Both the position numbers and the translations under genes were made by a program. Shown here in pieces: positions 7,822-35,657 of a DNA stretch of 64,000 nt (positions are counted from its first letter, which is position 1; each line of letters starts with the position of its first letter). The notes under the pieces are model-generated. The model was not told where the DNA came from. It saw only the letters and a program-made list of their open reading frames with translations, and did not search any database. Location of the stretch: NCBI GenBank assembly GCA_044892525.1, contig CM097885.1, positions 139,934,001 to 139,998,000 on the forward strand, written 5' to 3'. The stretch is from Schmidtea polychroa. Taxonomy: Eukaryota.

Positions 7822-7963
7822 GTGAGTATTTGCCGACGGGGTAGATCGGTAGGCCACTCTTGGATAACTTGGTCGGGGAGGTCTTAAATTTCGTTTTCCG
7901 AACATATGAATAAGACCCCAGCGAATTTTTTTATTTAAAAATAAAAATTTCTTAACAATTTAG
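7822..7963 (+). other. Candidate 142-nt intron in the LTR preceding the LTR ORF
   Basis: Consensus donor AAG|GTGAGT at 7822. Branch-like TTAAC and acceptor TTTAG| lie directly before ATG 7964. The upstream ATG AAG (7816-7821) would join in frame. Confidence 0.55.
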
Positions 7964-8728: not shown

Positions 8729-9270
8729 CCAATTCTCTCTCGGGTCTCGATTCCCTGCTATTACGAACGAACTTGAAGAAGCGACGTTATCTCGTGACTA
8801 AACTTTAATGTTTTGCATTTACTTAAACAATGCTGAATGTAATTTGATGTTCCGTTCTAATATAACTGTTCGATTTTCTTTGATTGTGTTAATTGTATGT
8901 ATGATTTGCTACGGTTGAATTGCATGAGAGAAGGATCACGAATATATAGTAGAAACTTAAATGTCGTACCTTTTGGACCAGGGTCAGACTGAATGATGCG
9001 TATAGAATGGGTAAGACCTTCTAAGGCACCGTAGAACCCGAACCGAGAAAGGGTTAGGAGTAGTCCTAACGCAGGGGCTCACCTGCTAACTTTTTCCAAC
9101 CCGTGTGAGCAGTACCAACGTGGAACATCACCACGGGCTCATACGTGGGAATATGCGAACGATCATTTGGAGTGTGTGAGGGAATGGTCTGAGTAGAATA
9201 ATGATACCTGATGCGGATGATAATCATGCCCATACGTTTTCTTTTCCCCCACATACGCCAACATGATTTT

Positions 9271-11320: not shown

Positions 11321-11982
11321 AAGGCCTAAAGTAATAGTGAGATAGCATTCAAGCTACAAGTTGATAACATTTAAATTACTAGTGAAATGGAATATTAAAG
11401 CTAGCTAGAAGTAAAGTGAGTTTGAAATATGGTATTTGAATTTAGAAAGGATTAAACGAGCTCGTGGGAGGTAATAATGAAATTTTTTTCAGTGAGAAAG
11501 AGAAACTGAAAAGGAAAACGAATTAAAGAGATAATGAAAATAAAGAATAAGTGATGAGTAAAAGAGGAAGGTGATTAATTAATTAAAAGGGATCCCAGAT
11601 AAGTAGACAAAGTTCTACAGAATTTTTTTGGTTTAAACCGGTTAAACGAATTTTGTTTTGGGTACAGAGTAGAACCAAATAAGGGGAAACAGAGATGAAA
11701 GATTAAGTAAAATAGCGGAACCGCGTAAAAGGATTAAGAAAATATGGGAGGTAATAAGCAGTAACTGACAACGACCTATCGATATTATAAATGCTAACTA
11801 TAGATAATTTATACGACTATATAGATAATTGTTACTACCCCAAATAGATAATTTAAAATCGACGAAAAATATGGGTTGATGGGTAATTATATTCCGCGAA
11901 GAAGTATATGAGGGGAAATGAAGAGAAGTATAACAGAGGCCCTAAAACGGTGTCTGTGCTTGAATGTGGCAAAAAGGAATGA

Positions 11983-14900
11983 TTGATTCGTGTAAGCAAA
12001 GGCAACACGATATCATATTTTCATTGTAGACATCCATCCAACCAAGTCAATTCAGAACCAGCTCAAGAGGAATCCAGAGAATATACAAACAACCCAGGAA
12101 AAGCAATTCAGAACCCGCACAAAGGAAGACAATATCAAAACCGAACTCGACCAATTCAGCAGACGCTAACCGTAGAAAATCCACGTGAAAAGACAGAAAA
12201 GAGTAAAAGGAAAATCACGGATAAACCCAACCTTAGATCTTCAAGTAAGCCAGGAGACGTATTATTTTCAGGAGACGAATTAGATCAACTCAAAAGAGGA
12301 CGATCATTTAGGCAGCAGAGAGGAATATCACAAGGAGCAAAAAGACCCCACAAAACACCGATATACGATCAAGAAAACCCCACAGCCGGACATACGCCCA
12401 GCCGATCTAGAAGTAGAGAAAGTCTATCCGATATAACAAACAACCTAACCGGGTCAACAGAAGAATTATCCGTCCATAGCTTAGCCACATCGCTGGAAAA
12501 TTTAAAAGAAATAATAGAGTTTCAAGAACCAATCAAGATGAATGTGGTAAAAACCGACGAGTATAAGGAAAAATTTAGAGGCGAACCATTCAACGGGAAT
12601 GCGAACAAGTTGGCAACGTTCATAACCAATTTTGAAGTCTATATTGATGTGTGTGGATGGACATCCGAAGCAATTAGTAAACGAATGCCTCTGTTTTTGT
12701 GCGATAGCGCACTCGAAGTATATCTGGAAGCAAAAGAAAGAAATACGAAATTAGACAATTGGGAAAACATCAAAACATTTTTGAGAAAAACATTCGGAGC
12801 CAGCAAACCGATAAACCAAGCGTTAGGTGAACTGGCAAGTAGAAAACAAAGAGCAAACGAGTCAATTACGTTATACGCAAGTGAATTGCGAAGATTGGCA
12901 AAGAAGGCCATGAACGGAAACTTGCCGGAGGAAAACTTAATTGGGTACTTCATAGAAGGACTACGCCGAGAAGAGGTAAGGGCCTCGGTGGGATGTCAAA
13001 TGTGTAAAACACTAGAGGAAGCTATAGATTGGGCCACAAGATGCGAACTACACCTCCCAGCACAAATGAACGTCATGCAAGAGGAGGGAAGAATCGCAAC
13101 AGCAACGGTGAAAACGGAAAATGGGGATAACAATAATCATGAACCCAAGATGAATCAGTTTATACCAGGAGCACATCAAATTTTCAAACCACCACAAGGA
13201 CGATCAAACGGGAATAACAGTGAACGCAACAACTCGAACAATGGGAACAACTTTAATAATCGACGAAATATGAACGATAACAAACAATGCCGAACATGCG
13301 GTAAACCAGGACATTGGGATAGAGATTGTTACCGAAACGCAAATTGCAATAGGTGTGGACGACGAGGACACACGGAAAATATATGCCAATCAAGAGGATG
13401 TTTTAACTGCGGGCAACTAGGTCATATCTCAAGAGACTGTCGAGAAAGGAGCCAACAACAACGACCACCACAGCGAAATAATAACTATGCACCAAATCCG
13501 CAACGACAAAGTAATCCTAGTGAGGGAAAGCAAATGAATGTGATGCAAGAAATTTCACAAATGAAGCAGATGATGCAACAAATGATGAGACCGAGACAAG
13601 AGCAAGTACCACAACCAACCCAGAATATACGCATGATGAGAAGCACCGAGAATCTTAACAATTATGAAGTGCAACAACATGCACAAGAATGGCAAAGACT
13701 ACAAGCTGAAGAAGAAAGGATAAAAAGAGAGCGAATTCAGCAGCGACAAGAACAACCACTACGAATAAATATGATGAGGATGGTAAAGGAGATAAAGGAG
13801 CAATATTGCTACAATTACGGTAAAAATCCAAGAGTTGTACCTATGAGCGAACCAGAGAAACTGAAGGAAACAATTACAGCAGCACAAAAGGAAAATTCAA
13901 CAACACCGCTAAAAGGAAATCAGAGAATTCAGAAAATATTTTGGAAAAAGATAAAAGATAAAATCGAAAGAGAAAATGAGCAAACAAAAACAGAAGCAGA
14001 AGCAGAAAATAACGAAAATGAAAAACAGATTAATCATCTAAAGCATAATATGATACGAGAATTAGACTCAGAGGAGCTAACGATACTCGAGAACAACAAG
14101 TTAAAGAAAGTACCAAGAATGAGAAATTTACGAATTAATATGATGAGGACAACAAAGAAGGTGTTGTCAACAGATGACGATGAGGATTATGTGAGTAGCC
14201 TTGGTGGAGAAATGTTACAGTTAAATGAAAATATCGACCAACTGAGAGAAAAGATCGGAGCAGATGAGGATGAAAGAGAAAGCGACGTGACAAGCGAAAG
14301 CGAAGACGAGAATATCGAAATGAAATTGAGAAAAGAAAGAGAAGAAGCGATAAAACAAGTAAAGGAAATACTTCCAGTGGTGGTAAGAAACCAGGAATTC
14401 ATTGACATCATACCATACCGACGCTTCATACAAAAGATAATGAAACTAGAAAGAAACGAAAAAGACCTAATACCAAACGAGGAAAAAGTGATAATAAAGA
14501 AGTATATGGAAAAAATGAAACAAGCGGAGACAACACGCTATGTAATAAAAATCGGAACGAGTAAAGGACTCGAGAGAATATGGATAAAAAATGCAGTCAC
14601 AGACGAGCTTTTTGATTGGATAAGAGAACATTTGGGCAGCTCGAGAAAGAAAGAGTATTTATATCAACATCAAGGAGAACAAATTAAGCCAGACATGCAC
14701 CTAATAGATGCATTGATCTGGCCAGGAGAAACTCAAATATTGAAATTGTATAAAGAGAAACAACCAGCAAATATTCACGAATGGGCTAAAGACGCCAAGG
14801 CCGAGTACGATTTTAACATCAAGCTGAAGCTGGAACAAATAAAACAATGCACCTTGCGACGAAATCTAGATAAATTAATCAAGCAAATCCAAGAACAAGT

Positions 14901-17900
14901 TGAGGATAATTGGGATTTGCTCATAACAAGACGAACTGCAGACATGCATGAGCTACTGAGCCGATTACGAGATACAGAATTGCTCAGGATGAGCGATTGG
15001 AGAACCATAAATTTGATCCACAAATATGGAAGGTTGAAAGAAACGCAACCGCAGAAATTAGAAATAACCATATGGTTACCAAACGAGGAGAAACGACGAA
15101 TAAAGATGAGTAATCAGAGTACGGTGGATGACTTAGTAACCAAGATAAACCAAGAGATAACGGAAAAAGTACAAAGCGAGAGTAGCGACGGGATGATAGA
15201 TGACGTAGTCATGATGTACGATAAAATAATATTACGGGCCGAGGACGACACCTCGCTAAGCGAAATGGGAATGTGGGATAATCATCAAATCATCAGAATA
15301 TTGCCCATGGACGAATTCCGAACAAGAGATATAACATACCAGAAAGAAATACGAGACAGGATGAAAACGCTATATCAAAAATCAGTAGAGATAATTGAAA
15401 TTCATCAACAGTGGCTAAAAGAAAAAGGGCTTCAAGGAAAAATAAAGAAACTAAGTGTTAGATCTTGCAGACGAACCCCATGGGAAAGGACGTGGAATGC
15501 GGAAAACAAAGAATGGGAAATCAGGAAAGGGATTTTCGTGGAAACAGACATTGGCGAGATAGAAAGCGAATCAGAAGAAGAGGAAGATGAACCTCCAAAA
15601 TACGAAGAGGACGAAATAGAATCGACATCGGACGACGAAAGCGAAACGGATGTTACATCAGAAAGTGAAACGGAAACCAGACATATTCATGCGATGAGAA
15701 AGAAAGAACGCGAATATGCCGATATGGACAGCGAAGAAGCGATGGAAGCTCGAGAACGAGAAGAGAAGGAAAGATATAAACAATTAGGTGATATCTTAGC
15801 AACGGGAACAAAAAATCAAAAACGTCAAGTAATAGCATTGGCTAACATCATCCTAAAGACATCAGAGAATATCCACAATCTAAGAGAAATGGCGAAAGCG
15901 ATTGAGGAATACAGACAATATAACGAATGGTACCCAGAACAGCTAGAACAAATTATTAGGAAATGGAGAAACCAAGAATGGGCACAAGATACCCAGGAAA
16001 GGTATCGTATCCGAGTCAAGTATCCCGACAAAAGCATTGAGGATACAGAAGTACATCCAACAACAAAGATCAGAGAGTTAAAAAAGAAATTAGCATACGA
16101 AACTCCATTTCACCTACAACTATTCGGAAAATCTCTGGATGATAATGCAGATGTCGGAATAACACCCATGAGATTGGGGGAGATCAATGTATTGACAATG
16201 GCAGAAACATTGGGAAAACCGATTAAAAGGAAGAACAAATCCAGTAAACCTACGAAAGGTAGCTTGAGTACACCAAGCCCTAACAAAGTGGCAAGTAAAA
16301 CGAATGAAACCGAGGAAATCGAGGAAATTATATTGGAAGACAGCGATGAAGGAGCTGGAGAAAGATCACCAATTCTGGTAAGATGGCCGACAGGAGCCGA
16401 AATATGGACAACAAGCCAACCGTCAACTAGCTATCAGCAGCCAAATAAGCTGAGTATCGAGGAAATTATCGATAATACAACAGAAACCGAAACCGACGAA
16501 CAATTCCAACGACAGAAAGGACTAACGAAAGCAACACCAGAAGGTCAAACGGACAAAATAATAGACGAATGGAACGAATGGCTGAGAAACAACGATAGCT
16601 CATTGCCAAGAACGGATAACGAGAGGAACCCGAATTATGAAAATACAAGGGAAGCCGGAACAATGATGGAAAAACGGGCAAAAGGGAGACCCAAGAAGCA
16701 AGGAGAAAAACCGGAATTTAAAACTAGAGAACAACTGAAACAAGAACAAGGACAAGTCAGATTAGAGAAACTAGATAAAATAGTGTGGGATCTAAAAGAG
16801 GCCCAGCCAACTATCGAAAGAGGCGAAAAATGGATACGAGAGCTAGTAAAAGATATGCTAATAATAACGAACCCACAATTGCGACGGTTATGGCAACGAA
16901 AAGTAGCAAGCGTAGACGCCAGACAACTATGGAATACAATATCCGGAATAATTCCGAAATTAATCAAAGAGAAGACAAAAACCACTAAAACCGATTGGGA
17001 AGAGACAAGAAGAGTAATTGAACAATTAACTTTAAACGCAAACGACGACGAACATCATTTAGTAGTGTTAACGTATCTAATGTACAATTTGATGGGATTA
17101 GCAGCAAGGAAAATACCTAACAAACAATTCGCAAATCATGTAGAAATGACCGTCACAATCATTGAAAATACAATCGAACCACATATCATCCGCGCCGGTG
17201 GGTGGAAAAGACTCATACAAGCGCCACGAAAAAACGAGCAAGAGAGATCAATGCAAATTCGGTTGAAGAAGTTACTAAATGAGCTAGAATGGGAATTGCC
17301 ATTGAAAGACCCAGCCAGCAGAAAAGCGTCGATTAATTCACTAATGATGACCATGATGATATGGATGCTCTGCACCAGTGGAGCCGCGGGATTTACTATT
17401 TACGACTGTGACAATTCGATAATAGGAGAAAGATACTCCCTGAGAGATATAGAGGAATGTAGACAGGCGTCTCCGAATAAATTAGATATAGTAAAAAAGA
17501 AAGTCTCCTATCACGTATACCAAGAATCAGATTTCATTAGAACGCAAGCTAGAGAATGCGTAGTATCGAAGAAAGTGTTGGCATATTACTGTGGACAATA
17601 CTCATATTCAACCCTCATATTACCTGGATTAGATAAAGAAATAGTACCTATACAACGGGAAGACTGTAAAGAGCTTTTTAGAACCGGAGCGATGAGAATC
17701 AGGGATGGAGTAACAATACACGGACAAAGCGGAATGATCAAGACAGAAAGTATCTATGTCGCCGGACGAGTAAAATCAACTGATGGATCATGTAACGGAG
17801 GCACATATACGATCAGAGGAGAGGTGATATCAGGAGTAGTAGTAATTGAGTCCTACACAGTGGAGTTGAAGGAATACGAAGCACAATTCGACGCAAACAA

Positions 17901-20900
17901 CTATCAAATGAAAACCAACCCAGCATGCAGAGCTACGGAAAACGTGTGTAGAACGGGAATTTCGACTATAATATATGAAGCTAACACCCAAAAATGCCGA
18001 CTCCAATTGTTAAAAAGTGCTCTATTCAATGAAGTAAAAGGAGAAATTTACGAAAACGAGGATGACGATGAAGAGAATGGAAACGTAAGGATGCGAAATG
18101 GGAAACCAGTTCCGCCATCCCCCAAAGAAAAGAGACTCACAACCCAAAAAACACCAACGGCATTAATTACAGATGACCCAGATATCGGCATGAGATTCAT
18201 TAGAGAAAAAGAGACCACCAAATGTGACAGCATAGTATACCGGACGAACTACGCAGGTATCTACATGTCAAGGCAAGTAATAGACCGAGCAGTGGGAAAG
18301 GTAGCAACAGAGGACGTAAAATTGTACCTGTACGCCAATAACAAAATGGACTTTTTATTTCACCGAGGACAAACGACAATGCAAAAAGTGTATTACGATC
18401 TTATACAAAATGACTGTTCATTGAATAAAGAGATACTAAAAACAAAATTAGCCATCGCAATAACACACCCAGATAACACAATGCCATCACTCCCGTTACC
18501 GGATGGACATTTTGGTAGAATGGTGGGAGAGGTAATGTATACATATGCATGTACCAAGACATTTGCGCGACTGCCAAGAAAGCCCACAATCCCACCAGGG
18601 AAATGTGCAAACGAGTTAGAAATTAGTTACAAGGGGCGAAACAGATTCGTTCAACCCGTCACTAGGATAATGAACCCAATTGGATTTTACCCGAACACCT
18701 TTAACTGTTCAAATGCATACGGACCGTTATATGAAAAACCCGATGGGAAATGGATAATGTTACCAGTAAAAACCGAAGTACAAGAGCCTAAAAAGTTTGG
18801 ACTAATAGAACTCGCAACAGAACAAGATTTCAAACCAATTGATGTGTCAAAAGCAGGTATGTACTCACCAGAGGATTTAGAAACGGCACGATTAAACGTA
18901 TTATTCCCAGCAAGACGGGAATCCATTCTATCGAATATGGTTACCATAACTGGGGGAACGAATTTCCAGTCAGGCCCCAATTACGAACTATTATTGTCAC
19001 CTGATCATTTTCAACAAGCCACGTCAAACATGATGAAAGCAATGTGGGGAAGATTTCTAGTATTCGGTCAAATGATGGCGGGAATATTGGGAATCATTCT
19101 TATTATCCAGATTGTCAGAGTAATATTAACTCAAATGTTAGCGTGTTTTGATATCTATAAGAGAGAAAAGAAGGTAAATTGGAAATTGATAGTAGGCTTT
19201 CTACCATTTTTGGCAAAAACAATGGTGTTGCACGGTCATTCTAAGGACATACACAGAATAAAACGATTGATCAAAATACTGACAAAAATAAAAGGAACTG
19301 ACGAGGAAGTCGGTAGACGATTTCGGAAAACAATGTATGATGAAGCAACAAGGACGCAACTGAAAAAGAACAAACCAAAATTCTTAGACAGATTTAGGAA
19401 TCGATCAAACAGCAGCGATAGTGATGATGACGACAACGGGAATGACAAATACCCATATCCAAGTAGAAACCCGAATGAAAAGCCAATAGAAACAGCACCA
19501 TATTGGGAGAAAGAAAAAACAAATACCTGGATAGCCAACGGAAGTTATATACCACCAGATATCGTTGGACAACAAACAGCTTTGACCATGACACAAAATA
19601 TGTATCCACAGTTACCAAGTCAACCAGGGATGAACTATATGCCGACCCGAAGAACGAAAAGTGTAGACCAAGCGGACGACGTAAGAACGATAGCAGTAAT
19701 GAGTTCACCAGGAGGTGCGGCAGTAACAGTCATGATCCAAATCAACGGGAAAGAGACAAGCGCAATGATAGATACCGGAGCAAACGTATCAGCAATAGCA
19801 ATAAACCAAATACCCAGTAAATGTTGGAAAGATATCGAACAAACAACTATCCATATTATTGCATGCAGTAAAGAAACCGTAGACGTAGTAGGAAGATGGT
19901 GGACTACGTTACGATATCAGGATAACGAAATTGAAACGTATCTAGCGGTGATACCCAAACTGAGTGAACCATGTATAATCGGAACGGATTTAATGCCGGA
20001 ATTGTTTAAGGAGGTAGTAATCGATTTAACAACAATGTGTCTAAAAGACAAAATGGGTAGAATATGCAAGATGAACGCAATAATTAGATGTCCGGAGAAA
20101 ATAATTGTACCCGCAAAATCACAGATGATATGTCAAATAAAAGTGGATGCAGGAATGGAAGGAGAAGTCATTTTTGAGCCAAGCAAATCATTCGAAAAAC
20201 GACGAGAATTACCATTAGCAAGAGAAATAATAACAATAAATGAAGACGGGGAAATACCAATTAACATCACAAATTTCGAGGAAGAAGACAAGATCATATA
20301 TGAAAATGAAAGATTGGGTAGATTGACACCCATGATAGACATCGAATTACCAAAAATCATCAACGAAACAACGAAAGCTGACGAATTATGGATAATTGAT
20401 AGCACCTTGCTAACGGAAAAAGAGAAGGAAAGACTTCAACAATTATTGATAGAATATAAAGATATATTCGCAATTTCGGATTTAGATTTGGGAGCATGCG
20501 ATGTTACATTACACGCAATACCATTAATAGACGAAACGCCAATCGCACTACGTCCATACAAACTAGCAGAGAAGCAAAAAGAGATAGCCGAAGTCGAAGT
20601 ACAAAAAATGCTAGATGCACAAGTGATCGAACCAAGTTGTTCGCCATGGCAATTTCCAGTAGTCATGGTGAAGAAAAAAGACGGTACTCAGAGATTCTGT
20701 ATCGATTATCGGAAATTAAATGCAGTAACAAAAAGAGACACATACCCGTTACCAGACATCAATGAGATGTTACTTATGTTACAGGGGGCCGCATATTTTA
20801 CATCTTTAGATCTAAAAAGTGGATATTGGCAGATCAAAGTCAAGGAGGAAGACAAAGAGAAAACAGCATTCACACTGGGCCGAGATCTATACCAATTCAG

Positions 20901-23900
20901 GAAAATGCCGTTCGGACTGACCAATGCCCCAGCATCATTCCAGAGATGTATGAATTTTGTCACACACGGGATCAAGCAGTGTATGGTATATATTGATGAT
21001 TTATTAATATATTCAGCAACATTCGAACAACATTTGGAAGATATCAGAAACGTGTTCGTTCGATTACGACAATGGAAACTGAAACTTAAACCATCCAAAT
21101 GTGATTGGGCAAAAGAAAAGGTTACGTTCTTAGGACACATAGTGTCAGCAAAAGGCAAAGAACCAGATCCAAGAAACATAGAAAAAATAAAAACATGTCC
21201 AGCACCAAAAACTGTCACCCAAGTTCAAGAATTTCTCGGATTATGCGGATATTATCGAAAATTCATCAAAAACTATGCAGGTATTGCGAAACCAATACAG
21301 GAATTAGTGAAAAAGGATATTTCATTTATTTGGGGTGCAGAACAACAAAAAGCGTTTGAAACATTGCGCGATAAATTAATCGAAGCCCCAATACTAGTAC
21401 ATCCTGATTTCAAGAAACCATTCCTATTAGCAACAGATGCAAGTGGATATGCAGCCGGAGCAATATTGGGACAACTCGACGAAGAAGGAAAAGAAAGAGT
21501 GATTGGATACTACAGTAGAACGTTTAAAAAACACGAGAAAAACTATTCCGTAACCGAGAGAGAAGCGTTAGCAATCATACAAGCAATTAAACACTTTCGA
21601 TATTTGTTATGGGGACACGAAATATGTATCACCACGGATCACCAACCATTAGTATGGCTTGGTCAACACAAAGAAGCTTCAAGTAGATTGATGCGATGGG
21701 CAATGCAGTTACAAGAATATTCACCGTTCATAAAATTCAAAGCGGGAAGAGCGAATGCCAATGCGGATTGTATGTCCAGATTTATCTTTCCAGATTTAGT
21801 AGATCACGAAATGCAACGAATATGTCTGATGGTAGCAGAAGATTTAGATTTTTGCCAATTACGGAAAGACCAACAAGAGGATACAGAGTTGAAGCAAATC
21901 ATTGAATATGTGAAAACAGGGAAAGCAGAGGTATATGAGAAAGATCAAAAATTGAAGGAGCATATGGATAAACATCGACATCGATATATTATCGAGAAAG
22001 ATTGGTTATTGATAATGGATGGCGAGAAAAGACTGATGTGCATTCCCGAGAATAGACGTAAAGATCTACTAACACAATACCATGACGGAAGACTCGGAGG
22101 ACATATGTCATCTAAAAAGACGTTGGCACGAATGAAACAAAAATATTTTTGGCCTACATTGACCGAGGATGTAGCGGAATGGGTGAAAAATTGCATAACT
22201 TGCGCAACCAGAAAAAACACGGGAACAAAATGGAAGGCACCATTAAAGCCTATGCCAGTGCCAGCAGAACCAATGACAATGATATCAATGGACGTAGTCG
22301 GTCCACTACCAGAATCAGATAGAGGAAATATATATATATTGGTAATCACAGATTATTTGACAAAATTCCCCGAAGCATTCGCAACGGCAGATCAGAAAGC
22401 AAGAACAATCGCAAAAATATTAGTAGAGGAAATATGTTGTCGATATGGAACGCCGAAACAAATACTGACGGATCAAGGAACGAATTTCATGAGCGAAATA
22501 ATGAGCGAAGTCACCAACTACTTCAAGATCGCAAAATTAAGAACATCACCGTACCATCCACAAACTAATGGTATGACAGAAAGATTCAATGGAACACTGA
22601 TTCAAATGTTATCAAATTATGTCGATCGTCATCAACGAGACTGGGATGAATATATAAAATTATGTCTAATGGCTTACAGAATGTCGATTCACGCGTCCAC
22701 AAAGATGAGTCCGTTCAAGTTGATGTACGGCAGAGAATGCAATATGCCAATGGATTTAGAATATCAGCCACCGATATCACAATACATGGAAATAGACGAT
22801 TATGTAACCAAGTTCAAGGAAAGAATGCAGGAAATCTGGGAAACCGCAGGATTGAATATAAAATTTTATCAAGAAAGTTACAAAGAGTTACATGATAGAA
22901 AGAAAAACGTCAAACAGCATACGTTTCAAACAGGCGAATGGGTGATGATTGAAACACCAGAATTAATTCCAGGAACCACCAAAAAATTACAACGAAACGG
23001 TAAAGGGCCGTATGAGATTCTATTCGTCGGAGAAACTAATGTAAGAGTACGATTAGTGAACAACCCTTTTACAAGACCAATATACGTAAATGTTGCACGA
23101 TGTAAGCCAATTCCGAAAACCGCCACCAGTCAGCCAGAAGGACGTACACTAACGACAAGATCACAAACGTATAGAATAAACATGTTACAGCAAATAAACG
23201 AACCAACAGGTAATCGATTAGGGTTACAACCATCAGAAGCCGAGAAAATCATAAAGGAAGTAAAAGTTAAAATGCCCGGATGGGCAGAAGACAGATTAGA
23301 TTTTGAGATATTGGGAGGTCTGCTAACAATGATCGAAAATTATGCAAACCGAGAAAGAACACACCCATTGCTCAGGGTAGTTAAAAGTCAATGGCCTATA
23401 TTATTCACGATCACAGACCATTACGGAGACACACCCCTGCACAAGCTTTTAAAGGTGGGTAGTAACGAACAGATATTAGAAACAATTGAAGCATTTCGCG
23501 ATTGTAACATTTCGACAGATCAAGAAAACAACCAAGGTTACACTCCACTAATGATAGCAGCCAATCGGGATAAAGCTAAAGATATTATCATCGCATTACT
23601 TGAAACTGGGTCAAAGATAACCACACAAGATCACAACCAGGAAAATGCATTACATCATGCAATCGAAGGGAAAAGTACGGAAGCCTTCATAATCTTAGTA
23701 GATCTATTATCGTACGAGGATAATAGAGAGATAGGAAACATGTATGACGGGCTATTAACTGCAATCAAAGAGAAATTAACAACAATTGCTGGAATACTAA
23801 TTGCATGGAGGAACCCGATAAAAAACGATTATATGGTAGATATAAACGAAACATTTACCAAAGGAGAAAACACCTTGATGAGAGAAGCGATGAGAGGACA

Positions 23901-26418
23901 TCACCTATTCGAAATTCCAAATCAACTACTACAACGTGGCATAAAATTCTCAAATCACAAAGACGAACAACTAATCAGAAAACGAATTACCAACTTCGAA
24001 AAAGCTATATCTCAATTTACCGATAAAGTACAAGTAAAATTTTGGGACACCGTGAGTGTTTTGCATATGATGGAAACTATGAACAACATTCGAGAAACTT
24101 ACCTAAGCATTATTCAAGTTCTAACGGCAGAGGAACGCATTAATAATTCGAACAAGAAAAAGATAAAAAGGAAGAAAGTAAAAGCAGGAGAGTCTGAGGA
24201 ACAAGTCGATCAACCAATAACCGATATAGCAACAACAAGTAAACCAAAGACAATAAACTCCGACCAAGAGATAGTAGTACGTAAGGCTAAAGAAGTATTC
24301 TTTGAAGAAATGCAAGATCTATCCGATGAAGCGATACTAGCAAAAATAACCAAAACAGTACACACCTACGCAAGAGATCAGACCACAAATCTAGACATAG
24401 GAAAAATAAAAACATTTATACCACTAGCATTCACCTTACCAACAAAAGACTCAAGAACACCATTACAACAAGCCATTTTAGCAGCAAAAGAGAACAGAGC
24501 AATAACCATCATAAGAATCCTCAGAGACTTCGGAGAAGAATCTAATGCAAAAAATGGACAAGGAGAAACAGCAATGATGTATGCAGCCATAACAAATATA
24601 CACCCGAAAACATTACATATACTACATCAATCAGGTTCGAGACTTGACGAAAGATCAAACGAAGGAAATTCTACCATGGATTGGGCAACAATACAACCAA
24701 ACTTGGAAATGATTAGATTCATTTGTAAAAATGCTACAAGAACTGAGGTAGAAAATATCTGTAAAAACACGTCACAGTTCCAATGGAACACGATACGGAT
24801 GAACTTAGAAGCCATGAAGTTGCTGCTAACATGGAGAATACCACAAAGCAATAAATATGCAATAAATATAAATGAGTTCTACGAAAACGGAGAAAATGCT
24901 ATGGTTAAAAATACACTAACAAAAGGAGGAACTCCGAAAATCATAATGATCGTATTAAACAGGGAAGATCTCAAATTCACGCAGAATCTAAACGAACAAA
25001 AGCGAATCGGGAAACATCGTCGGATACAATTAAGAGAATTAGTGAAAGAATGGAATAGAAAGAGACATGTAGCAACAGGCAGAAAGGAGTTCGAATTCGA
25101 AGCAAAATTAGCAAGAAACAGAGTGCTAACGGCATACCGCAGATTGTTGAATGATATAAATGTCGAGGACGACATTTTAAACGATAGCGGGGGAGATAAA
25201 GACGATAAAGACGATAAAGACGACAATAATAATGAAAAAGGTCGAAACGGGAATAAAGAGAAAGAGAAATCAGAGGAGAATAATCAAGAAAATAACGACG
25301 CGAGTAGGAAAAAAGAGGAAAATAACCCGAGAAACCGAATGAAGCAAGAAGAAAAGACGAATAGTGGAAAACAGAGGGTATGCCTACTTTTTACCAACAA
25401 AGAAATGGAGACAAATATGATGATAATGATACTCGTACTAACAATGGTGGAAATGATAACAGCCCAGGGAGGAATGAGAACGATAAAAGAAGCCAAAGAA
25501 ACGGAAAATAAGGACAACAAAGAGGAAGAACTAAAACAAGAAAAGAAAAAACAAGTACAAGAGCAGCAATGGGATCTAAAAGAAGAATGGGATTTAAAAG
25601 AAAGGTGTATATTAGGAAGATGTATGTCTAGAGCTTATCAGAGACTAGTGTTAAAAAATGAAGATGCAGAACCAATAACGGAAGTAAGAATACAAGAAGC
25701 ATACCGAAATCGAGAAGGAAAGAGAATAACGAAAGTTAAAGGGAAGGAAGTACACCTGGGAAAAGGAGGTGAGGTAGTGATAACGCAACTCCAGCCAAGA
25801 AAAGAACACAAAGTCTGCATCGCAAGATTAAGACCGGGTGAAGACTGTCTACAATATGTAATACAGCAACAACCTCCAAAAGAATACACAATATGCATCT
25901 GGAGAAAAGATACAGCGAGAGAATGTCGACGATACCCTGGGAAAAGAGGGAAGAAAAGAAAAATCGATGATGAAAAAGATGAGCAAGGAAAACGCAAGAA
26001 AACCAGTGAGAAACATCAAGACAATTATGTATCCGAAGAGGAGATGGAGAAAATACAAAAAATGGCAAAGGAAGGTATGAACGAGGAAATAGCAAGAATA
26101 CGAGGAATGATGAAAGGAAATGACAAAGACGGTAATCTAAAAAGCACAGAAGCAATATCAACAATAACGAGCAAGGAAGAAGCGGAAATTATAAGCATAA
26201 AACAGATGATGTGGATCAGCGGCATAATAATAACAGGGGCCTTTTTAATCATAACGGGGGGGACAATAAAAATAATCAAAGATAGACGGCATCACGGAGA
26301 ACTAGAAATGGCCAGAATAAGAAATTTCCAACATCGTGTAAAACGACCAAGTAATATCAAGCAGGAACAGTGGGTGGAGGCCTGGAATGCTCAGCGCCCT
26401 CCAAGCTCACGTATATAG
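11983..26418 (+). CDS. gag-pol: E1 single polyprotein (~4,811 codons open; first ATG 12538): Gag-Ubl x3-AT-hook-Bcl-2-like-glycoprotein-PR-RT-RH-IN-ANK-FN3/TM
   Basis: Three CCHC knuckles (13288-13440), protease IDTGA (~19768), RT YIDD (20989-21000), RNase H TDASG (~21433), integrase HHCC, DDE core and GPY motif (22080-23110). No internal stop. Confidence 0.97.
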   Translation: MIRVSKGNTISYFHCRHPSNQVNSEPAQEESREYTNNPGKAIQNPHKGRQYQNRTRPIQQTLTVENPREKTEKSKRKITDKPNLRSSSKPGDVLFSGDELDQLKRGRSFRQQRGISQGAKRPHKTPIYDQENPTAGHTPSRSRSRESLSDITNNLTGSTEELSVHSLATSLENLKEIIEFQEPIKMNVVKTDEYKEKFRGEPFNGNANKLATFITNFEVYIDVCGWTSEAISKRMPLFLCDSALEVYLEAKERNTKLDNWENIKTFLRKTFGASKPINQALGELASRKQRANESITLYASELRRLAKKAMNGNLPEENLIGYFIEGLRREEVRASVGCQMCKTLEEAIDWATRCELHLPAQMNVMQEEGRIATATVKTENGDNNNHEPKMNQFIPGAHQIFKPPQGRSNGNNSERNNSNNGNNFNNRRNMNDNKQCRTCGKPGHWDRDCYRNANCNRCGRRGHTENICQSRGCFNCGQLGHISRDCRERSQQQRPPQRNNNYAPNPQRQSNPSEGKQMNVMQEISQMKQMMQQMMRPRQEQVPQPTQNIRMMRSTENLNNYEVQQHAQEWQRLQAEEERIKRERIQQRQEQPLRINMMRMVKEIKEQYCYNYGKNPRVVPMSEPEKLKETITAAQKENSTTPLKGNQRIQKIFWKKIKDKIERENEQTKTEAEAENNENEKQINHLKHNMIRELDSEELTILENNKLKKVPRMRNLRINMMRTTKKVLSTDDDEDYVSSLGGEMLQLNENIDQLREKIGADEDERESDVTSESEDENIEMKLRKEREEAIKQVKEILPVVVRNQEFIDIIPYRRFIQKIMKLERNEKDLIPNEEKVIIKKYMEKMKQAETTRYVIKIGTSKGLERIWIKNAVTDELFDWIREHLGSSRKKEYLYQHQGEQIKPDMHLIDALIWPGETQILKLYKEKQPANIHEWAKDAKAEYDFNIKLKLEQIKQCTLRRNLDKLIKQIQEQVEDNWDLLITRRTADMHELLSRLRDTELLRMSDWRTINLIHKYGRLKETQPQKLEITIWLPNEEKRRIKMSNQSTVDDLVTKINQEITEKVQSESSDGMIDDVVMMYDKIILRAEDDTSLSEMGMWDNHQIIRILPMDEFRTRDITYQKEIRDRMKTLYQKSVEIIEIHQQWLKEKGLQGKIKKLSVRSCRRTPWERTWNAENKEWEIRKGIFVETDIGEIESESEEEEDEPPKYEEDEIESTSDDESETDVTSESETETRHIHAMRKKEREYADMDSEEAMEAREREEKERYKQLGDILATGTKNQKRQVIALANIILKTSENIHNLREMAKAIEEYRQYNEWYPEQLEQIIRKWRNQEWAQDTQERYRIRVKYPDKSIEDTEVHPTTKIRELKKKLAYETPFHLQLFGKSLDDNADVGITPMRLGEINVLTMAETLGKPIKRKNKSSKPTKGSLSTPSPNKVASKTNETEEIEEIILEDSDEGAGERSPILVRWPTGAEIWTTSQPSTSYQQPNKLSIEEIIDNTTETETDEQFQRQKGLTKATPEGQTDKIIDEWNEWLRNNDSSLPRTDNERNPNYENTREAGTMMEKRAKGRPKKQGEKPEFKTREQLKQEQGQVRLEKLDKIVWDLKEAQPTIERGEKWIRELVKDMLIITNPQLRRLWQRKVASVDARQLWNTISGIIPKLIKEKTKTTKTDWEETRRVIEQLTLNANDDEHHLVVLTYLMYNLMGLAARKIPNKQFANHVEMTVTIIENTIEPHIIRAGGWKRLIQAPRKNEQERSMQIRLKKLLNELEWELPLKDPASRKASINSLMMTMMIWMLCTSGAAGFTIYDCDNSIIGERYSLRDIEECRQASPNKLDIVKKKVSYHVYQESDFIRTQARECVVSKKVLAYYCGQYSYSTLILPGLDKEIVPIQREDCKELFRTGAMRIRDGVTIHGQSGMIKTESIYVAGRVKSTDGSCNGGTYTIRGEVISGVVVIESYTVELKEYEAQFDANNYQMKTNPACRATENVCRTGISTIIYEANTQKCRLQLLKSALFNEVKGEIYENEDDDEENGNVRMRNGKPVPPSPKEKRLTTQKTPTALITDDPDIGMRFIREKETTKCDSIVYRTNYAGIYMSRQVIDRAVGKVATEDVKLYLYANNKMDFLFHRGQTTMQKVYYDLIQNDCSLNKEILKTKLAIAITHPDNTMPSLPLPDGHFGRMVGEVMYTYACTKTFARLPRKPTIPPGKCANELEISYKGRNRFVQPVTRIMNPIGFYPNTFNCSNAYGPLYEKPDGKWIMLPVKTEVQEPKKFGLIELATEQDFKPIDVSKAGMYSPEDLETARLNVLFPARRESILSNMVTITGGTNFQSGPNYELLLSPDHFQQATSNMMKAMWGRFLVFGQMMAGILGIILIIQIVRVILTQMLACFDIYKREKKVNWKLIVGFLPFLAKTMVLHGHSKDIHRIKRLIKILTKIKGTDEEVGRRFRKTMYDEATRTQLKKNKPKFLDRFRNRSNSSDSDDDDNGNDKYPYPSRNPNEKPIETAPYWEKEKTNTWIANGSYIPPDIVGQQTALTMTQNMYPQLPSQPGMNYMPTRRTKSVDQADDVRTIAVMSSPGGAAVTVMIQINGKETSAMIDTGANVSAIAINQIPSKCWKDIEQTTIHIIACSKETVDVVGRWWTTLRYQDNEIETYLAVIPKLSEPCIIGTDLMPELFKEVVIDLTTMCLKDKMGRICKMNAIIRCPEKIIVPAKSQMICQIKVDAGMEGEVIFEPSKSFEKRRELPLAREIITINEDGEIPINITNFEEEDKIIYENERLGRLTPMIDIELPKIINETTKADELWIIDSTLLTEKEKERLQQLLIEYKDIFAISDLDLGACDVTLHAIPLIDETPIALRPYKLAEKQKEIAEVEVQKMLDAQVIEPSCSPWQFPVVMVKKKDGTQRFCIDYRKLNAVTKRDTYPLPDINEMLLMLQGAAYFTSLDLKSGYWQIKVKEEDKEKTAFTLGRDLYQFRKMPFGLTNAPASFQRCMNFVTHGIKQCMVYIDDLLIYSATFEQHLEDIRNVFVRLRQWKLKLKPSKCDWAKEKVTFLGHIVSAKGKEPDPRNIEKIKTCPAPKTVTQVQEFLGLCGYYRKFIKNYAGIAKPIQELVKKDISFIWGAEQQKAFETLRDKLIEAPILVHPDFKKPFLLATDASGYAAGAILGQLDEEGKERVIGYYSRTFKKHEKNYSVTEREALAIIQAIKHFRYLLWGHEICITTDHQPLVWLGQHKEASSRLMRWAMQLQEYSPFIKFKAGRANANADCMSRFIFPDLVDHEMQRICLMVAEDLDFCQLRKDQQEDTELKQIIEYVKTGKAEVYEKDQKLKEHMDKHRHRYIIEKDWLLIMDGEKRLMCIPENRRKDLLTQYHDGRLGGHMSSKKTLARMKQKYFWPTLTEDVAEWVKNCITCATRKNTGTKWKAPLKPMPVPAEPMTMISMDVVGPLPESDRGNIYILVITDYLTKFPEAFATADQKARTIAKILVEEICCRYGTPKQILTDQGTNFMSEIMSEVTNYFKIAKLRTSPYHPQTNGMTERFNGTLIQMLSNYVDRHQRDWDEYIKLCLMAYRMSIHASTKMSPFKLMYGRECNMPMDLEYQPPISQYMEIDDYVTKFKERMQEIWETAGLNIKFYQESYKELHDRKKNVKQHTFQTGEWVMIETPELIPGTTKKLQRNGKGPYEILFVGETNVRVRLVNNPFTRPIYVNVARCKPIPKTATSQPEGRTLTTRSQTYRINMLQQINEPTGNRLGLQPSEAEKIIKEVKVKMPGWAEDRLDFEILGGLLTMIENYANRERTHPLLRVVKSQWPILFTITDHYGDTPLHKLLKVGSNEQILETIEAFRDCNISTDQENNQGYTPLMIAANRDKAKDIIIALLETGSKITTQDHNQENALHHAIEGKSTEAFIILVDLLSYEDNREIGNMYDGLLTAIKEKLTTIAGILIAWRNPIKNDYMVDINETFTKGENTLMREAMRGHHLFEIPNQLLQRGIKFSNHKDEQLIRKRITNFEKAISQFTDKVQVKFWDTVSVLHMMETMNNIRETYLSIIQVLTAEERINNSNKKKIKRKKVKAGESEEQVDQPITDIATTSKPKTINSDQEIVVRKAKEVFFEEMQDLSDEAILAKITKTVHTYARDQTTNLDIGKIKTFIPLAFTLPTKDSRTPLQQAILAAKENRAITIIRILRDFGEESNAKNGQGETAMMYAAITNIHPKTLHILHQSGSRLDERSNEGNSTMDWATIQPNLEMIRFICKNATRTEVENICKNTSQFQWNTIRMNLEAMKLLLTWRIPQSNKYAININEFYENGENAMVKNTLTKGGTPKIIMIVLNREDLKFTQNLNEQKRIGKHRRIQLRELVKEWNRKRHVATGRKEFEFEAKLARNRVLTAYRRLLNDINVEDDILNDSGGDKDDKDDKDDNNNEKGRNGNKEKEKSEENNQENNDASRKKEENNPRNRMKQEEKTNSGKQRVCLLFTNKEMETNMMIMILVLTMVEMITAQGGMRTIKEAKETENKDNKEEELKQEKKKQVQEQQWDLKEEWDLKERCILGRCMSRAYQRLVLKNEDAEPITEVRIQEAYRNREGKRITKVKGKEVHLGKGGEVVITQLQPRKEHKVCIARLRPGEDCLQYVIQQQPPKEYTICIWRKDTARECRRYPGKRGKKRKIDDEKDEQGKRKKTSEKHQDNYVSEEEMEKIQKMAKEGMNEEIARIRGMMKGNDKDGNLKSTEAISTITSKEEAEIISIKQMMWISGIIITGAFLIITGGTIKIIKDRRHHGELEMARIRNFQHRVKRPSNIKQEQWVEAWNAQRPPSSRI
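14530..16200 (+). other. Three ubiquitin-like (beta-grasp) domains in the E1 polyprotein (~14530-14760, ~15052-15306, ~16000-16200)
   Basis: For example RYRIRVKYPDKSIEDTEVHPTTKIRELKKKL...HLQLFGKSLDDNADVG and LEITIWLPNEEKRRIKMSNQSTVDDLVTKI...DDTSLSEMGM follow the ubiquitin strand-strand-helix pattern. Confidence 0.6.
16672..17230 (+). other. AT-hook (KRAKGRPKK) followed by a Bcl-2-like domain in E1
   Basis: The BH2-like IIENTIEPHIIRAGGWKRL parallels Bcl-xL YLNDHLEPWIQENGGW, preceded by a hydrophobic alpha5-like helix HLVVLTYLMY. Confidence 0.7.
17341..19230 (+). other. env: Signal peptide + chuvirus(Jingchuvirales)-type glycoprotein ectodomain + TM in E1
   Basis: FTIYDC...YSLRDIEEC, CDSIVYRTNY, YANNKMDFLF...NDCSLNKEILKTKLAIA, GRMVGEVMYTYAC, CANELEI, GMYSPEDLETARLNVLFPA and TM ~19051-19140 match the Cys/motif pattern of chuvirus glycoproteins. 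Confidence 0.8.
23419..24960 (+). other. Two blocks of ankyrin repeats after the E1 integrase
   Basis: GDTPLH, GYTPLMIAA and QENALHHA in block 1; SRTPLQQA, GETAMMYAA and GNSTMDWA in block 2. Confidence 0.9.
25405..26418 (+). other. C-terminal type I membrane module of E1: signal peptide, FN3-like ectodomain, TM, short tail
   Basis: SP METNMMIMILVLTMVEMITAQ, FN3-like VVITQLQPRKEHKVCI, TM MMWISGIIITGAFLIITGGTIKII. Confidence 0.65.
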
Positions 26419-31467: not shown

Positions 31468-34400
31468 TGTTGGGCTAAAATGCGGAGTGGAGAAAACTGG
31501 AGCGAATAGAAAAATAAACCCCGAAAGATAGATGAAATAAAATAAAAATATAAAGTACCATAAAAATCTTACTAGTAAATAGGAAGGAACAATAAAAGAA
31601 CAACAAAAGAATAAGAATAAGTAAACAAACTAAATAAAATCCAATAAACCCCTTAAGATTTAGAAATAAAACGGGTTAAGGTACACAGCGGATAAAATAG
31701 AAATAGAATAAGTAAAAAAGTGACAACAAATAAAAGAGAAATTTAAGAAATAAATAAAAAATAAAACTATCTTTAAGTCTAATTAAAACAAAAAATTATA
31801 TTACAATAAAGTAGCAATAAACCTACAGGAAAAATAGGAGGAAAATAATAAAAATAAGAAAATAAATAAAATAATAATAAGAAATAAGTTAAGTCATTAA
31901 AATCTAATATATTATAATAAAAAACATAAAAATGATAATAAATAGTAAAAATACAAGCAGGTAGCGTCCTGATTGGACGAAAAATACTATATATGTAACG
32001 TGAAAAATTAGACGACAACCACTTTTAATTTTTCACGATTACAGGTAAAATTTTAGAAAAACTTAAAACCACTTTTAATTTTTCACGATTACAGAGCATA
32101 GACTTCAGATATTTCACCGAATTCAGGACTAGAATCGCAAACACTAATTCCAGAGATTTTCAGAACTTACCTTTAATTTAAATTCGATTTCGTTCCAGTT
32201 TTTGAAACTATCAGTAGGTTGATTGATTTATATGTATTAGTTAATTCATTAATGATGAAAAACAAAACTCATTTCGTAAAATAAATTTATTGAAATACAA
32301 ATGGCCTTTTCTTCATGGTGCCGGCGACTGTACCATCTGAGAGCTCCCAGTATGATGTGGACGAGTTGGAAATGTACCACGGTAGAGAACACGACAGTGG
32401 GAAGGTTGACCTTCTTAAGAAATCCCGAAGATGCTGAAAATGAGAATGTGATATTTGCAGAGAAAGATATTTACCATAGGAGAGATCTACCAAGGGTATG
32501 ATGAGGCTGCGGTTGTGTGGAATGAATAACATCATACTTGGAGTCCAAATGATAGGGTCGCCGGGTGAGCTTTATTGATTCATTTATTCTTTATTGATTC
32601 ATTTATTTTTATTGATTCATTTGCTGCTATTTGATTCCTTCATTCATTTTATTATTCATAAATTGTATATTAAATATTGATTTTGTGAAAAACGAGTCGA
32701 ACGGTCCCTCATGACGATGCAAGAACGGCGGCAGAGATGATTGCCTTCTTGGGTGGGTCATGAGGGGTGAGGAGACTCCGCAGGTGGAATACTGTTGGCA
32801 GTGGAATTTCTCACCTCGAGCGCGATCTGATAGAGAATCTTTCGTTTTCTTTCATGAAGTCACGCCGAAGTTTCAGAGTAGATAATGTAAATTTCCAAAG
32901 TCGGAGACAATTTTTCGGATTGCGATCAGTAGTTCGTTGTTGTTAGGAAAACTTGCTTTTCCGTCGAATATTGATAGATGTCTGAGTAGGAATGGGCGAT
33001 GAATTGTTAGAGTTTTCACTGGAAGATCTGCTAAGCACTTAAAAATTGAACCCCGAGAGGTACATTGCAGGGACATTAGCGAGTAAACCCATTCATTGAC
33101 TAATTTAGACTTTAGCTTGACATTGAATATCTGATAAAGTTTGGTTTGACGTTGACAGCGGCTCGTCTAAAATGGGAAAGTAAACAAATTTTTTGATAAG
33201 GAAATAAATCACTTGCCGTGAGTCCGAGTGAAGATATCAATAGCGATAGGAGAATCATTAGTTGCCCATGGCCAGATAAATTTCCGACGGGGAAAATCGG
33301 CTGATAATTTGATAAAGTCATCGAACGAGTTGATTGAGAAGGCGGCGGTCGATCGAATGTATTGAGTGGTCTTATCGTGAGTCGACCTAATATCGAAAAT
33401 CCAGAATATAGAGTAATTTTTATCTACTGAATCCGCAAGTCACCCACACAATCGAATTTCTTGAGTTTTGGACACACCAACTGAGTACCCTTCACAACTA
33501 GAGCATCTCTCTACAACTCTACCTCTATAAATCGCTCGCCCACATGTACACATGCATCACACTCAGATTAGGTCACAGTGCACATGTGGATATCATCATT
33601 ACCTAATCATAGGGAGAGAGTCGTACACTGATAACTGCTGGTAGACTACTGGATTGCGTCAGAGAACATGGCAATGCGACGAGAAATTTTTTTTTCTGTC
33701 AGTGTGCAAGTCGCTAGTTAAACGCACCAACATGCATCGTAACGAACCCATCGATAGTTGATGGTATAGATAGACAATCAAATGAACACATAACTGCGCC
33801 CGATTTAAGCGTCACTATGACGATGTTTATGACGTTAAATTTGAAATAACAAATTTGTAATCCATGATAAAAATTTTAAGCGAGGGTATTATGATTTTCT
33901 TACAAACCCGAGGGGTCTACATACAAGACGGGGTGTCCCGGTAATTGCCGATTTTCCGTTCATCATACAGCACGCGTAGAATCTAACGACGTAGCAGCAA
34001 AATGAGTAAAATATAATTGTTAAAATGTAACAACGATAATTAAGATAATAGCGTTCATAGTAACGAATTTACCGTTATGCCGTAGTTAAAAATAGTCAAA
34101 CCCGTAAAGTAAACCTAAAAGCTAGCATAATGAATTGTTTTCATGAATCCCGTTTTCTTCTCATAAAGTAGTGATGATTACATGGGTCAGTTTAGATGTT
34201 TGAGATTGCATGAAGGTGAGTATTTGCCGACGGGGTAGATCGGTAGGCCACTCTTGGATAACTTGGTCGGGGAGGTCTTAAATTTCGTTTTCCGAACATA
34301 TGAATAAGACCCCAGCGAATTTTTTTATTTAAAAATAAAAATTTCTTAACAATTTAGATGAATACTTCAACCAGTTCCGGGAAAACCCTCAGACCTTGCT

Positions 34401-35657
34401 TTTCCTGTGCTGATAAAAATGCCGATATCGCACAGCTCCACTTGTACATCGGGGAATTGAAGAAGAGAATTGACCTCTATGAGGGAACGTGGTTCTCCCC
34501 ACCACAAATGAAGGAGGAGAAGAGCAAGATTCTGCGTTTGGAGCACTGCCGTGACAGTCTCCTGGAAGAAAGCAGGTGCCAGAGGTTAACCATAAAGGCC
34601 CAATCAGAGGCACTGCACAAGGTGTATTCCGAATCAGAACTAGCGAAGCGAGTTCGCGAGTACCCGATACAAGATGGGACTAACGTGTTCCCAATGCACC
34701 ACAAATTAGCTGAAACCTCATCAATATCCAGTTGTAAAGGGCATGGCCCACAAATGCCGCCAATTCCCGCCCCAGTCCTTTCAGGCGATCGACCTATGGC
34801 TGGCGGTTCATCGGACCCTATCTTGGCTCCAGTACTCGTGCCACACCTCCTTCAGCCCCCAGCAGAAGCTACACTCCCCCATCGAAAGCGTAAGCGGCTG
34901 ACGCGTTCTGAAAAAAATCAGAAGCGGAGGAATGCCATGGCCGCGCTCGAAGCATCGCTATCTGTAGCCAAAGCAACTATCAAGGAAATTACAGTTACCC
35001 ATTCCATTCCTACAAAGGAAGTATTCCGGGTAGTTCCGGCCGGTAGTATCAAATTCCTCGAAGACCGCCGGCTGCCCGTTGACATCGACGAGATGCTCGC
35101 AGAGGGAGAAGCATTCTCGTAGCCAATTCTCTCTCGGGTCTCGATTCCCTGCTATTACGAACGAACTTGAAGAAGCGACGTTATCTCGTGACTAAACTTT
35201 AATGTTTTGCATTTACTTAAACAATGCTGAATGTAATTTGATGTTCCGTTCTAATATAACTGTTCGATTTTCTTTGATTGTGTTAATTGTATGTATGATT
35301 TGCTACGGTTGAATTGCATGAGAGAAGGATCACGAATATATAGTAGAAACTTAAATGTCGTACCTTTTGGACCAGGGTCAGACTGAATGATGCGTATAGA
35401 ATGGGTAAGACCTTCTAAGGCACCGTAGAACCCGAACCGAGAAAGGGTTAGGAGTAGTCCTAACGCAGGGGCTCACCTGCTAACTTTTTCCAACCCGTGT
35501 GAGCAGTACCAACGTGGAACATCACCACGGGCTCATACGTGGGAATATGCGAACGATCATTTGGAGTGTGTGAGGGAATGGTCTGAGTAGAATAATGATA
35601 CCTGATGCGGATGATAATCATGCCCATACGTTTTCTTTTCCCCCACATACGCCAACA
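31468..35657 (+). repeat. E1 3' LTR (4,190 bp)
   Basis: Copy of 5074-9263, followed by TSD CGAC. Confidence 0.97.
34358..35122 (+). CDS. 3'-LTR copy of the 254-aa LTR ORF
   Basis: Identical to 7964-8728 except T->K (SVATAT vs SVAKAT). Confidence 0.75.
   Translation: MNTSTSSGKTLRPCFSCADKNADIAQLHLYIGELKKRIDLYEGTWFSPPQMKEEKSKILRLEHCRDSLLEESRCQRLTIKAQSEALHKVYSESELAKRVREYPIQDGTNVFPMHHKLAETSSISSCKGHGPQMPPIPAPVLSGDRPMAGGSSDPILAPVLVPHLLQPPAEATLPHRKRKRLTRSEKNQKRRNAMAALEASLSVAKATIKEITVTHSIPTKEVFRVVPAGSIKFLEDRRLPVDIDEMLAEGEAFS

Follow-up and report, generated by a model that had tools for sequence, protein, structure and literature searches.

The E1 element and its polyprotein

The window, a stretch of 64,000 nucleotides of Schmidtea polychroa (GCA_044892525.1, contig CM097885.1, positions 139,934,001 to 139,998,000), holds a Ty3/gypsy-type element, E1, which spans 30.6 kb (5074-35657), and a second element, E2. 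The main features of E1 are the following.

5074..9263, +: 5' LTR (TG...CA, 4,190 bp), 3 mismatches against the 3' LTR; target-site duplication CGAC on both flanks
12538..26418, +: single ORF of 4,626 aa
17329..17391, +: predicted first internal signal sequence, a hydrophobic stretch before FTIYDC ahead of the gB-type ectodomain; same site in 5 other copies
17392..19158, +: gB/chuvirus-type fusion glycoprotein (PF24664, E 6.8e-72; hydropathy), with ectodomain at 17392-19032 and TM at about 19048-19158
23479..24624, +: ankyrin repeats after the integrase (PF12796, E 1.4e-15; PF13637)
31468..35657, +: 3' LTR

The polyprotein frame is open from 11983, with its first ATG at 12538, and encodes in order Gag, CCHC, a Bcl-2-like region, a gB-type Env, protease, RT, RNase H, integrase, ankyrin repeats and a second membrane protein. 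The chuvirus fusogen named in a sequence-only reading matches PF24664. The same reading had put the second membrane protein where env normally sits; the place is indeed the usual one of env, but the protein is not a separate env ORF, because it follows the integrase and ankyrin region in frame. The ATG at 25405 is not where an ORF begins: the frame is already open upstream, and the 4,732-aa subfamily has Ile in place of this Met. The Bcl-2-like match is weak in E1 (E 0.097) and stronger in E2 (9.3e-05); most inspected loci of multi-copy Bcl-2 ORFs sit in Polinton-like elements. E1 carries TRAF, RING, Bcl-2-like and ankyrin cargo, TRAF being a downstream ORF.

Layout, predicted fold and conservation of the C-terminal module

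The region 25405-26415 translates to 337 aa and is closed by the stop codon at 26416-26418. Its parts, together with the putative protease site ahead of it and the corresponding module of E2, are listed here.

25372..25392, +: QRVCLLF, a site that the element's protease may cut, immediately 5' of the second signal
25405..25470, +: predicted second internal signal sequence (hydropathy 2.9 over 11 residues)
25471..25587, +: Lys/Glu-rich charged linker, predicted helix
25588..25881, +: predicted seven-stranded FN3-type beta sandwich, with Cys68/73 and Cys138/148
25864..25941, +: repeat of the Cys hairpin with Cys164/174, recognised by eye; modelled from the single sequence as two strands
25942..26202, +: stalk, a basic patch (12 K/R in 24 aa) and then a charged segment
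26203..26274, +: predicted transmembrane helix (hydropathy peak 26197-26280)
26275..26418, +: cytoplasmic tail of 47 aa ending in S-R-I-stop (S-R-I at 26407-26415), of the class I PDZ-binding type
45563..46414, +: E2 module, with signal, one FN3-like domain (45659-45934), Thr-rich stalk, TM (46220-46297) and a tail ending in T-L-V

Hydropathy scans with windows of 11 and 19 residues gave over-threshold peaks at only three places in the 4,626-aa frame, namely the module signal (signal-like stretch 25417-25476), the module TM and the gB TM. Along the frame the hydrophobic stretches follow one another as signal, TM, signal, TM. The predicted signal peptide, TM and short tail of the sequence-only reading stand, and a signal-peptidase cut is predicted by eye from the (-3,-1) rule after A20 or G22. 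The C-terminal module is very probably a type I membrane protein, and the same layout of signal-like stretch, ectodomain, one TM and tail is found by hydropathy in six of six families. Just upstream, QRVCL is the best of 4,620 five-residue words when compared with the RNaseH/integrase junction word QRICL, and QRVC is kept in 20 of 20 E1-family loci.

The Cys-containing domain with its FN3-type LQP..H.VC motif likewise held up (LQPRKEHKVC at 25789-25818; six Cys in the module, at 68, 73, 138, 148, 164 and 174), and its E-F-G Cys hairpin appears by eye to be repeated in tandem (aa 129-153 and 154-179). The predicted model has seven strands, A-B-C-C'-E-F-G, over ~90 residues, with a pLDDT of 68.4 and of 73-83 in the core blocks; the domain is very likely an FN3/Ig-type sandwich. 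E1 gave no match to Pfam fn3 (PF00041, cut-off 25 bits), and the E2 domain stayed below the cut-off with 15 bits (E 0.03); no LRR or Ig Pfam match precedes the FN3-like domain, only ~40 charged residues lying between it and the signal. No N-glycosylation sequon occurs in the 337 aa of the E1 module.

The module is under purifying selection: compared with the 4,732-aa subfamily, dN/dS is 0.09 for the whole module and 0.06 for the beta domain, the TM shows 0 non-synonymous and 6 synonymous changes, and the domain is stop-free in 150 of 150 scored genomic matches. A class I PDZ ligand is defined by C-terminal S/T-x-V/I/L, and such an end closes the module in all six families, as against 3 of 110 other ORF ends. 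Pairwise tests are weak, none being significant alone (E1-E2, BLASTP E 2.5 and hhalign probability 0.9%; E1-E6, E 0.067). Module swapping between subfamilies was considered and rejected, nucleotide identities being alike for gB, RT-RH and module (97/97/94% and 81/84/83%).

Homologue searches outside the host genome, in libraries that may lack the host's elements, gave no match among 2,108 near-length candidates, none for the module region among 1,063 polyprotein-length candidates and none for profile A5 among 7,675 longer ones. None of 598 pattern matches in metagenome contigs was confirmed, no retroelement protein was seen among 13 scanned of 14 representative matches, and PDB sequence searches with whole modules or an E2-only profile returned no rows. 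A search of the host genome with Fn3_ELFN gave 18 matches, all below the cut-off; the three loci inspected were Polinton-like or low-complexity frames and were rejected, so that a donor gene was not found. Contigs from presumed RNA runs span the module, and among the joints listed in them none leads into the region before 25405, so that the listed joints give no sign of a spliced env-like mRNA. Raised read depth over the module is also present in a run of undefined kind and was given no weight.

Possible roles of the second membrane protein

The reading we favour, in which belief and doubt are about evenly balanced, takes the E1 module as a separate type I surface protein, with the predicted FN3-type domain outside and the PDZ-type tail inside, that partners the gB-type fusogen in attachment and cell contact; the attachment or contact role itself is held with the same even confidence. 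On this reading the module, together with the fusion protein, likely serves the element in attaching to cells and in passing from one to another. The polyprotein would cross the ER membrane four times, which would leave Gag and Pol-ankyrin in the cytosol and gB and the FN3-type domain in the lumen. Signal peptidase would free the mature N-terminus of the second membrane protein, the element's protease would cut QRVCL-LF and release Pol-ankyrin from the signal, and one copy of the protein would arise per copy of Gag, gB and Pol (1:1) in the same membrane. Its tail could then bind host PDZ scaffolds and so bring the protein to cell contacts. There the FN3-type head and the basic stalk may attach to a glycosaminoglycan or surface ligand of the neighbouring cell, so that gB would fuse at this site.

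That the protein is instead kept on the producing cell, as a host modulator and not as a particle component, is unlikely, though the likeliest of the rivals. By tying up PDZ scaffolds, or by imitating an adhesion or signalling receptor of the host, it would protect the cell, loosen junctions or block the entry of rival elements. The PDZ-type end in six of six families fits such a role, as do the E-T-F-V end of another E1 ORF (28642-29679), the TRAF, RING, Bcl-2-like and ankyrin cargo of the same element, and the view of Arkhipova and Yushenova that Burro meddles with apoptosis and ubiquitination (available text of PMC6431247). On the other hand, each of the six families carries the module in one frame with Gag, Env and Pol, whereas TRAF, IAP and RING have ORFs of their own whose presence varies, and the Thr-rich stalks of E2 and E6 would raise the head above the membrane. 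By analogy with herpesvirus gH/gL, the module might be a direct partner of gB, a chaperone or fusion trigger and not a receptor binder. Co-translation 1:1 into the same membrane and its presence wherever a gB-type Env was examined (6/6 families) agree with this, yet the ectodomain varies from one to three domains at <20% identity, as against 36-56% for gB, a pattern unlike that of a fixed interface; such a partnership is improbable.

It is still less probable that the module is a mere membrane tether or leftover, whose hydrophobic stretches anchor Pol in assembly while the beta domain either is not moved across the membrane or does nothing outside. The E1 ectodomain is highly charged and sequon-free, and its basic patch resembles a nuclear signal; against this stand the low dN/dS in the domain, the paired Cys, the 4-11 sequons in the other five families, and the second TM with its conserved tail motif. 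Least credible is the cytokine-receptor decoy that the sequence-only reading had offered, here taken as captured from a host receptor. In structure comparison of the predicted FN3-type model, cytokine-receptor matches score level with those to integrin, Dscam, tenascin, fibronectin and monobodies; moreover, the E1 domain lacks a WSXWS or WxxW-type motif, E1 has one domain and one extra hairpin and not a tandem D1-D2 pair (~200 aa), and no Pfam receptor match was obtained for E1.

Extending the attachment reading, we tentatively consider it possible that Burro-type elements have a two-protein envelope from one polyprotein, an RNA-virus gB-type fusogen with a separately gained host-like FN3 adhesin, the PDZ tail parking the adhesin at cell junctions. 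The adhesin would be older than the split of three deep lineages, and changes of the head (1 to 3 domains) would set tissue tropism per family. If so, a Ty3/gypsy element would have its own dedicated attachment protein and be built to spread from cell to cell in an animal rich in stem cells. With the module, the polyprotein would pass the membrane four times and be processed both by signal peptidase and by the protease of the element; this layout occurs in RNA viruses and is not known from retrotransposons. Described errantiviruses have, to our knowledge, one envelope protein. If conserved, a further surface protein would give a definite candidate to account for receptor binding, tropism and transfer between cells, testable in planarians; as a host modulator, it would still show that a retroelement can act on PDZ scaffolds from the membrane. 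Transmission of most env-carrying retrotransposons is described as elusive in the available text of PMC13524379, and Burro expression in planarians as tissue-specific in that of PMC8532177.

Comparison with known systems

Burro and GYPSM1 are giant Ty3/gypsy elements of planarians which, in the available text of PMC6431247, share with E1 a size of ~30 kb, long LTRs, TRAF and BIR cargo, and one 4,600-4,800-aa ORF with Gag, a Bcl-2-like region, Env in frame between Gag and protease, RT, integrase and ankyrin. That text describes no signal-FN3-TM protein at the polyprotein end, never uses 'fibronectin', and uses 'transmembrane' solely for Terminons. E1 has the LTRs with target-site duplication and PR-RT-RH-IN order of Burro-like and GAG-ENV-POL elements, a gB/mononegavirus-type Env (PF24664) in frame between Gag and protease, and the Burro-like ankyrin, weak Bcl-2-like and TRAF cargo and size; the likeness to Burro is one of architecture, no sequence of a named Burro family (1-4) having come up among the matches, and TRAF is a downstream ORF in E1, unlike in Burro. 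Grohme et al. (2018) reportedly marked a TM in Burro polyproteins. The GAG-ENV-POL errantiviruses of Platyhelminthes, Nematoda and Bryozoa likewise have an HSV/gB-type ENV between Gag and Pol and many intact copies, with 45 and 215 copies for Schmidtea elements (available text of eLife RP108449, PMC13524379). They differ in that one envelope protein is described, the main text of that survey, as available, containing 'fibronectin', 'Burro' and 'accessory' 0 times (PMC13524379).

Animal type I FN3 surface proteins (ELFN, LRFN/SALM, LRIT, Tie2, integrin beta4, Dscam, cytokine receptors) resemble the module in signal, FN3-type domain(s), stalk and TM, with tied structure matches, but the E1 module is without LRR, Ig or kinase parts and shows <20% identity. 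In the LRR-FN3 group the likeness extends to a Cys pair on the F and G strands and to a tail of the PDZ type. Two-part viral envelopes, such as herpesvirus gB with gD or gH/gL and pneumovirus F with G, also combine a fusogen with another surface protein that changes fast and carries a stalk and a basic patch. This likeness is functional only; the best BFVD match (E 2.3e-03) was an uncharacterised phage protein, with no sequence or structure tie to such envelopes. The tail of HTLV-1 Env binds the PDZ scaffold hDlg1 and co-localises with Gag, but there the PDZ tail is on the fusogen, whereas in E1 the motif, a putative PDZ ligand, is on the second protein (available text of PMC3395148). Finally, the planarian nidovirus PSCNV has, as far as the available text of PMC6211748 goes, one polyprotein that combines ankyrin and fibronectin-type modules with a Thr-rich region, features for which a part in transmission has been proposed; its fibronectin-type modules are FN type II and not type III, and it is an RNA virus to which no relation is shown.

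The membrane module at the polyprotein C-terminus

In all six families of giant Burro-like LTR elements examined in this genome, i.e., E1 and E2, E3 and E5 (frames of 3,334 and 3,437 aa), E4, and E6 (4,791 aa), the last being a sister of E1 that is also ankyrin-bearing, the polyprotein ends in a signal, one or more beta domains, a stalk, a TM and a tail. The module contains one beta domain in E1 and E2, and three in E3-E6 as counted by eye. Because each genome search scored its best 68-150 candidates, the survey is non-exhaustive and the families number at least six. The elements concerned in the window are:

5074-9263 and 31468-35657, LTRs of E1, with 3 mismatches between them
12538-26418, E1 polyprotein, a single frame of 4,626 aa
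36035-49548, E2, the second element, built on the same plan as E1

The RT-RH tree separates three lineages, (E1,E6), (E2) and (E3,(E4,E5)), at 49-51% identity, and the tree of the gB-type fusion glycoprotein agrees with it (8 rows, midpoint-drawn, long-branch warning). Conservation of the ectodomain is far below that of gB or RT, with identities between E6 and E1 of 15-19%, 56% and 89%, respectively. The FN3-like domain of E2 contains an RGD tripeptide (region 45713-45721), which varies to K-G-D or K-G-N in most relatives and is therefore probably due to chance.

The E1 module comprises 337 residues from 25405, in frame with Pol: a hydrophobic stretch at aa 5-20 and a charged linker precede the Cys-bearing region that contains LQPRKEHKVC and a further Cys hairpin, and the stalk, the TM and a tail of 47 aa follow. 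In one subfamily, Ile takes the place of the Met at 25405. No stop was found in the E1-type domain among the best 150 genomic matches scored of 347 candidates, and about 70 of these 150 module matches, by hand count, lie in frames of at least 4,700 codons; the E1 family is both young and large. In comparison with the 4,732-aa subfamily, dN/dS amounts to 0.09 for the module and 0.06 for the domain alone, with 6 synonymous and no non-synonymous changes in the TM. Closer copies gave 0.21 and 0.42 for the module, and 0.96 and 1.96 for the stalk, the latter values being based on few changes.

Topology, processing and the C-terminal tail

Along the polyprotein the hydrophobic stretches run signal, TM, signal, TM, an order by which Gag and Pol-ankyrin would be cytosolic, with both ectodomains facing the lumen. 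In E2-E6, Met is absent for 36-131 residues ahead of the core of the second signal, which favours an internal signal, with a spliced leader as a possible alternative. Of the 4,620 words compared, QRVCLLF, 11 residues ahead of the Met at 25405, best matches QRICLMV, the word at the RNaseH/integrase junction. A looser pattern (R-I-N-M-M / R-I-C-L-M type), picked post hoc, occurs 11 times in the E1 frame 12538-26418 versus 1.5 expected, often at domain borders, including both protease flanks and the integrase/ankyrin border. QRVCLLF and the related words are taken as putative sites of the element's own protease. In E2-E5, a K/R-Y-x-L-R-S word, which resembles the chromatin-binding motif of foamy virus Gag, is located between integrase and signal (window 45560-45580; 4981-4998 of L034, another locus of the genome).

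The module tail ends in S/T-x-V/I/L in all six families (SRI, TLV, TRL, TWV, TFV, TLV), which is the class I PDZ-binding pattern. It is found at 14 of the 121 distinct long-frame ends in the loci studied, 11 of them module tails; as E3-E5 are related, the independent tails number about four. A retroviral precedent for a PDZ-type tail is HTLV-1 Env with hDlg1 (PMC3395148). The accessory ORF of E1 at 28642-29679 encodes 345 aa that look coiled-coil-like by eye and match no Pfam family; it closes with E-E-T-F-V, an ending of class I PDZ type that the tail of the E5 module shares.

Proposed role and its rivals

There is about an even chance that the module is a type I surface protein produced in a 1:1 ratio with the gB fusogen; its tail would place it at cell contacts, where head and basic stalk would bind the neighbouring cell or matrix, and gB would then fuse at the contact so bound. 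A host modulator that remains on the cell is a possible but unlikely reading. It is improbable that the protein acts as a direct partner of gB, still less probable that it is a tether only, and least probable of all that it serves as a cytokine decoy.

Element architecture and known systems

E1 is an intact LTR element of 30.6 kb with the target-site duplication CGAC; a planarian host is presumed from the resemblance of its layout to the Burro elements and the GAG-ENV-POL errantiviruses. According to Pfam, its frame encodes Gag, CCHC knuckles, a Bcl-2-like domain (weak match), a Monjiviricetes fusion glycoprotein (E 6.8e-72), protease, RT, RNase H, integrase and ankyrin repeats, in this order. 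Downstream of the polyprotein follows a TRAF ORF, complete with RING, TRAF zinc fingers and MATH (27036-28424); a RING frame (9721-10218) lies upstream. In E6, TRAF is followed by an IAP-like BIR ORF (L056, a further locus, 7539-9901), and the genome holds 309 BIR candidates. The Bcl-2-like domain of E1 is situated ~40 residues ahead of the first signal sequence (region ~17050-17391) and, once signal peptidase cuts, would be anchored in the membrane at its C-terminus, as host Bcl-2 proteins are. Multi-copy Bcl-2 matches also sit at multi-copy Polinton-like elements (loci L073, L075, L077, L083, L084), whose frames, as judged by eye, resemble packaging ATPase, integrase, capsid and polymerase, and a 152-aa Bcl-2-like ORF occurs among the Polinton-like loci.

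Just after the 5' LTR of E1, the sequence (9264-9281) opens with TGATTTTTGGGG, unlike the usual TGG primer-binding site; the corresponding sequence of E2 is TGGTGCCGCG. The leader between the E1 5' LTR and the ORF contains a tandem array of 80-bp units (10723-11321). The 208-aa E1 ORF 30610-31236, with a hydrophobic N-terminal start and a moderately hydrophobic stretch (aa 105-122), is possibly a third membrane protein. The accessory ORF of E2 (46449-48605, 718 aa) has no Pfam match, and E4 carries an exonuclease-like ORF, by eye, in the same place (locus L038, 4968-6425).

In the full-text literature, no report was found of an FN3 protein tied to a gypsy LTR retrotransposon envelope or contained in a flatworm retrotransposon polyprotein with a TM, nor of a retrotransposon with a class III/chuvirus-type fusion glycoprotein plus an attachment protein. 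A C-terminal TM may already be marked in Grohme et al. 2018 or its supplement, in Repbase entries or in eLife figures. Burro elements and their internal Env are already published; in the portions available of the Burro paper (PMC6431247) and the errantivirus paper (PMC13524379), the module at the polyprotein end is unnamed. The layout of E1 is that of the planarian Burro elements (PMC6431247) and of the GAG-ENV-POL errantiviruses (PMC13524379).
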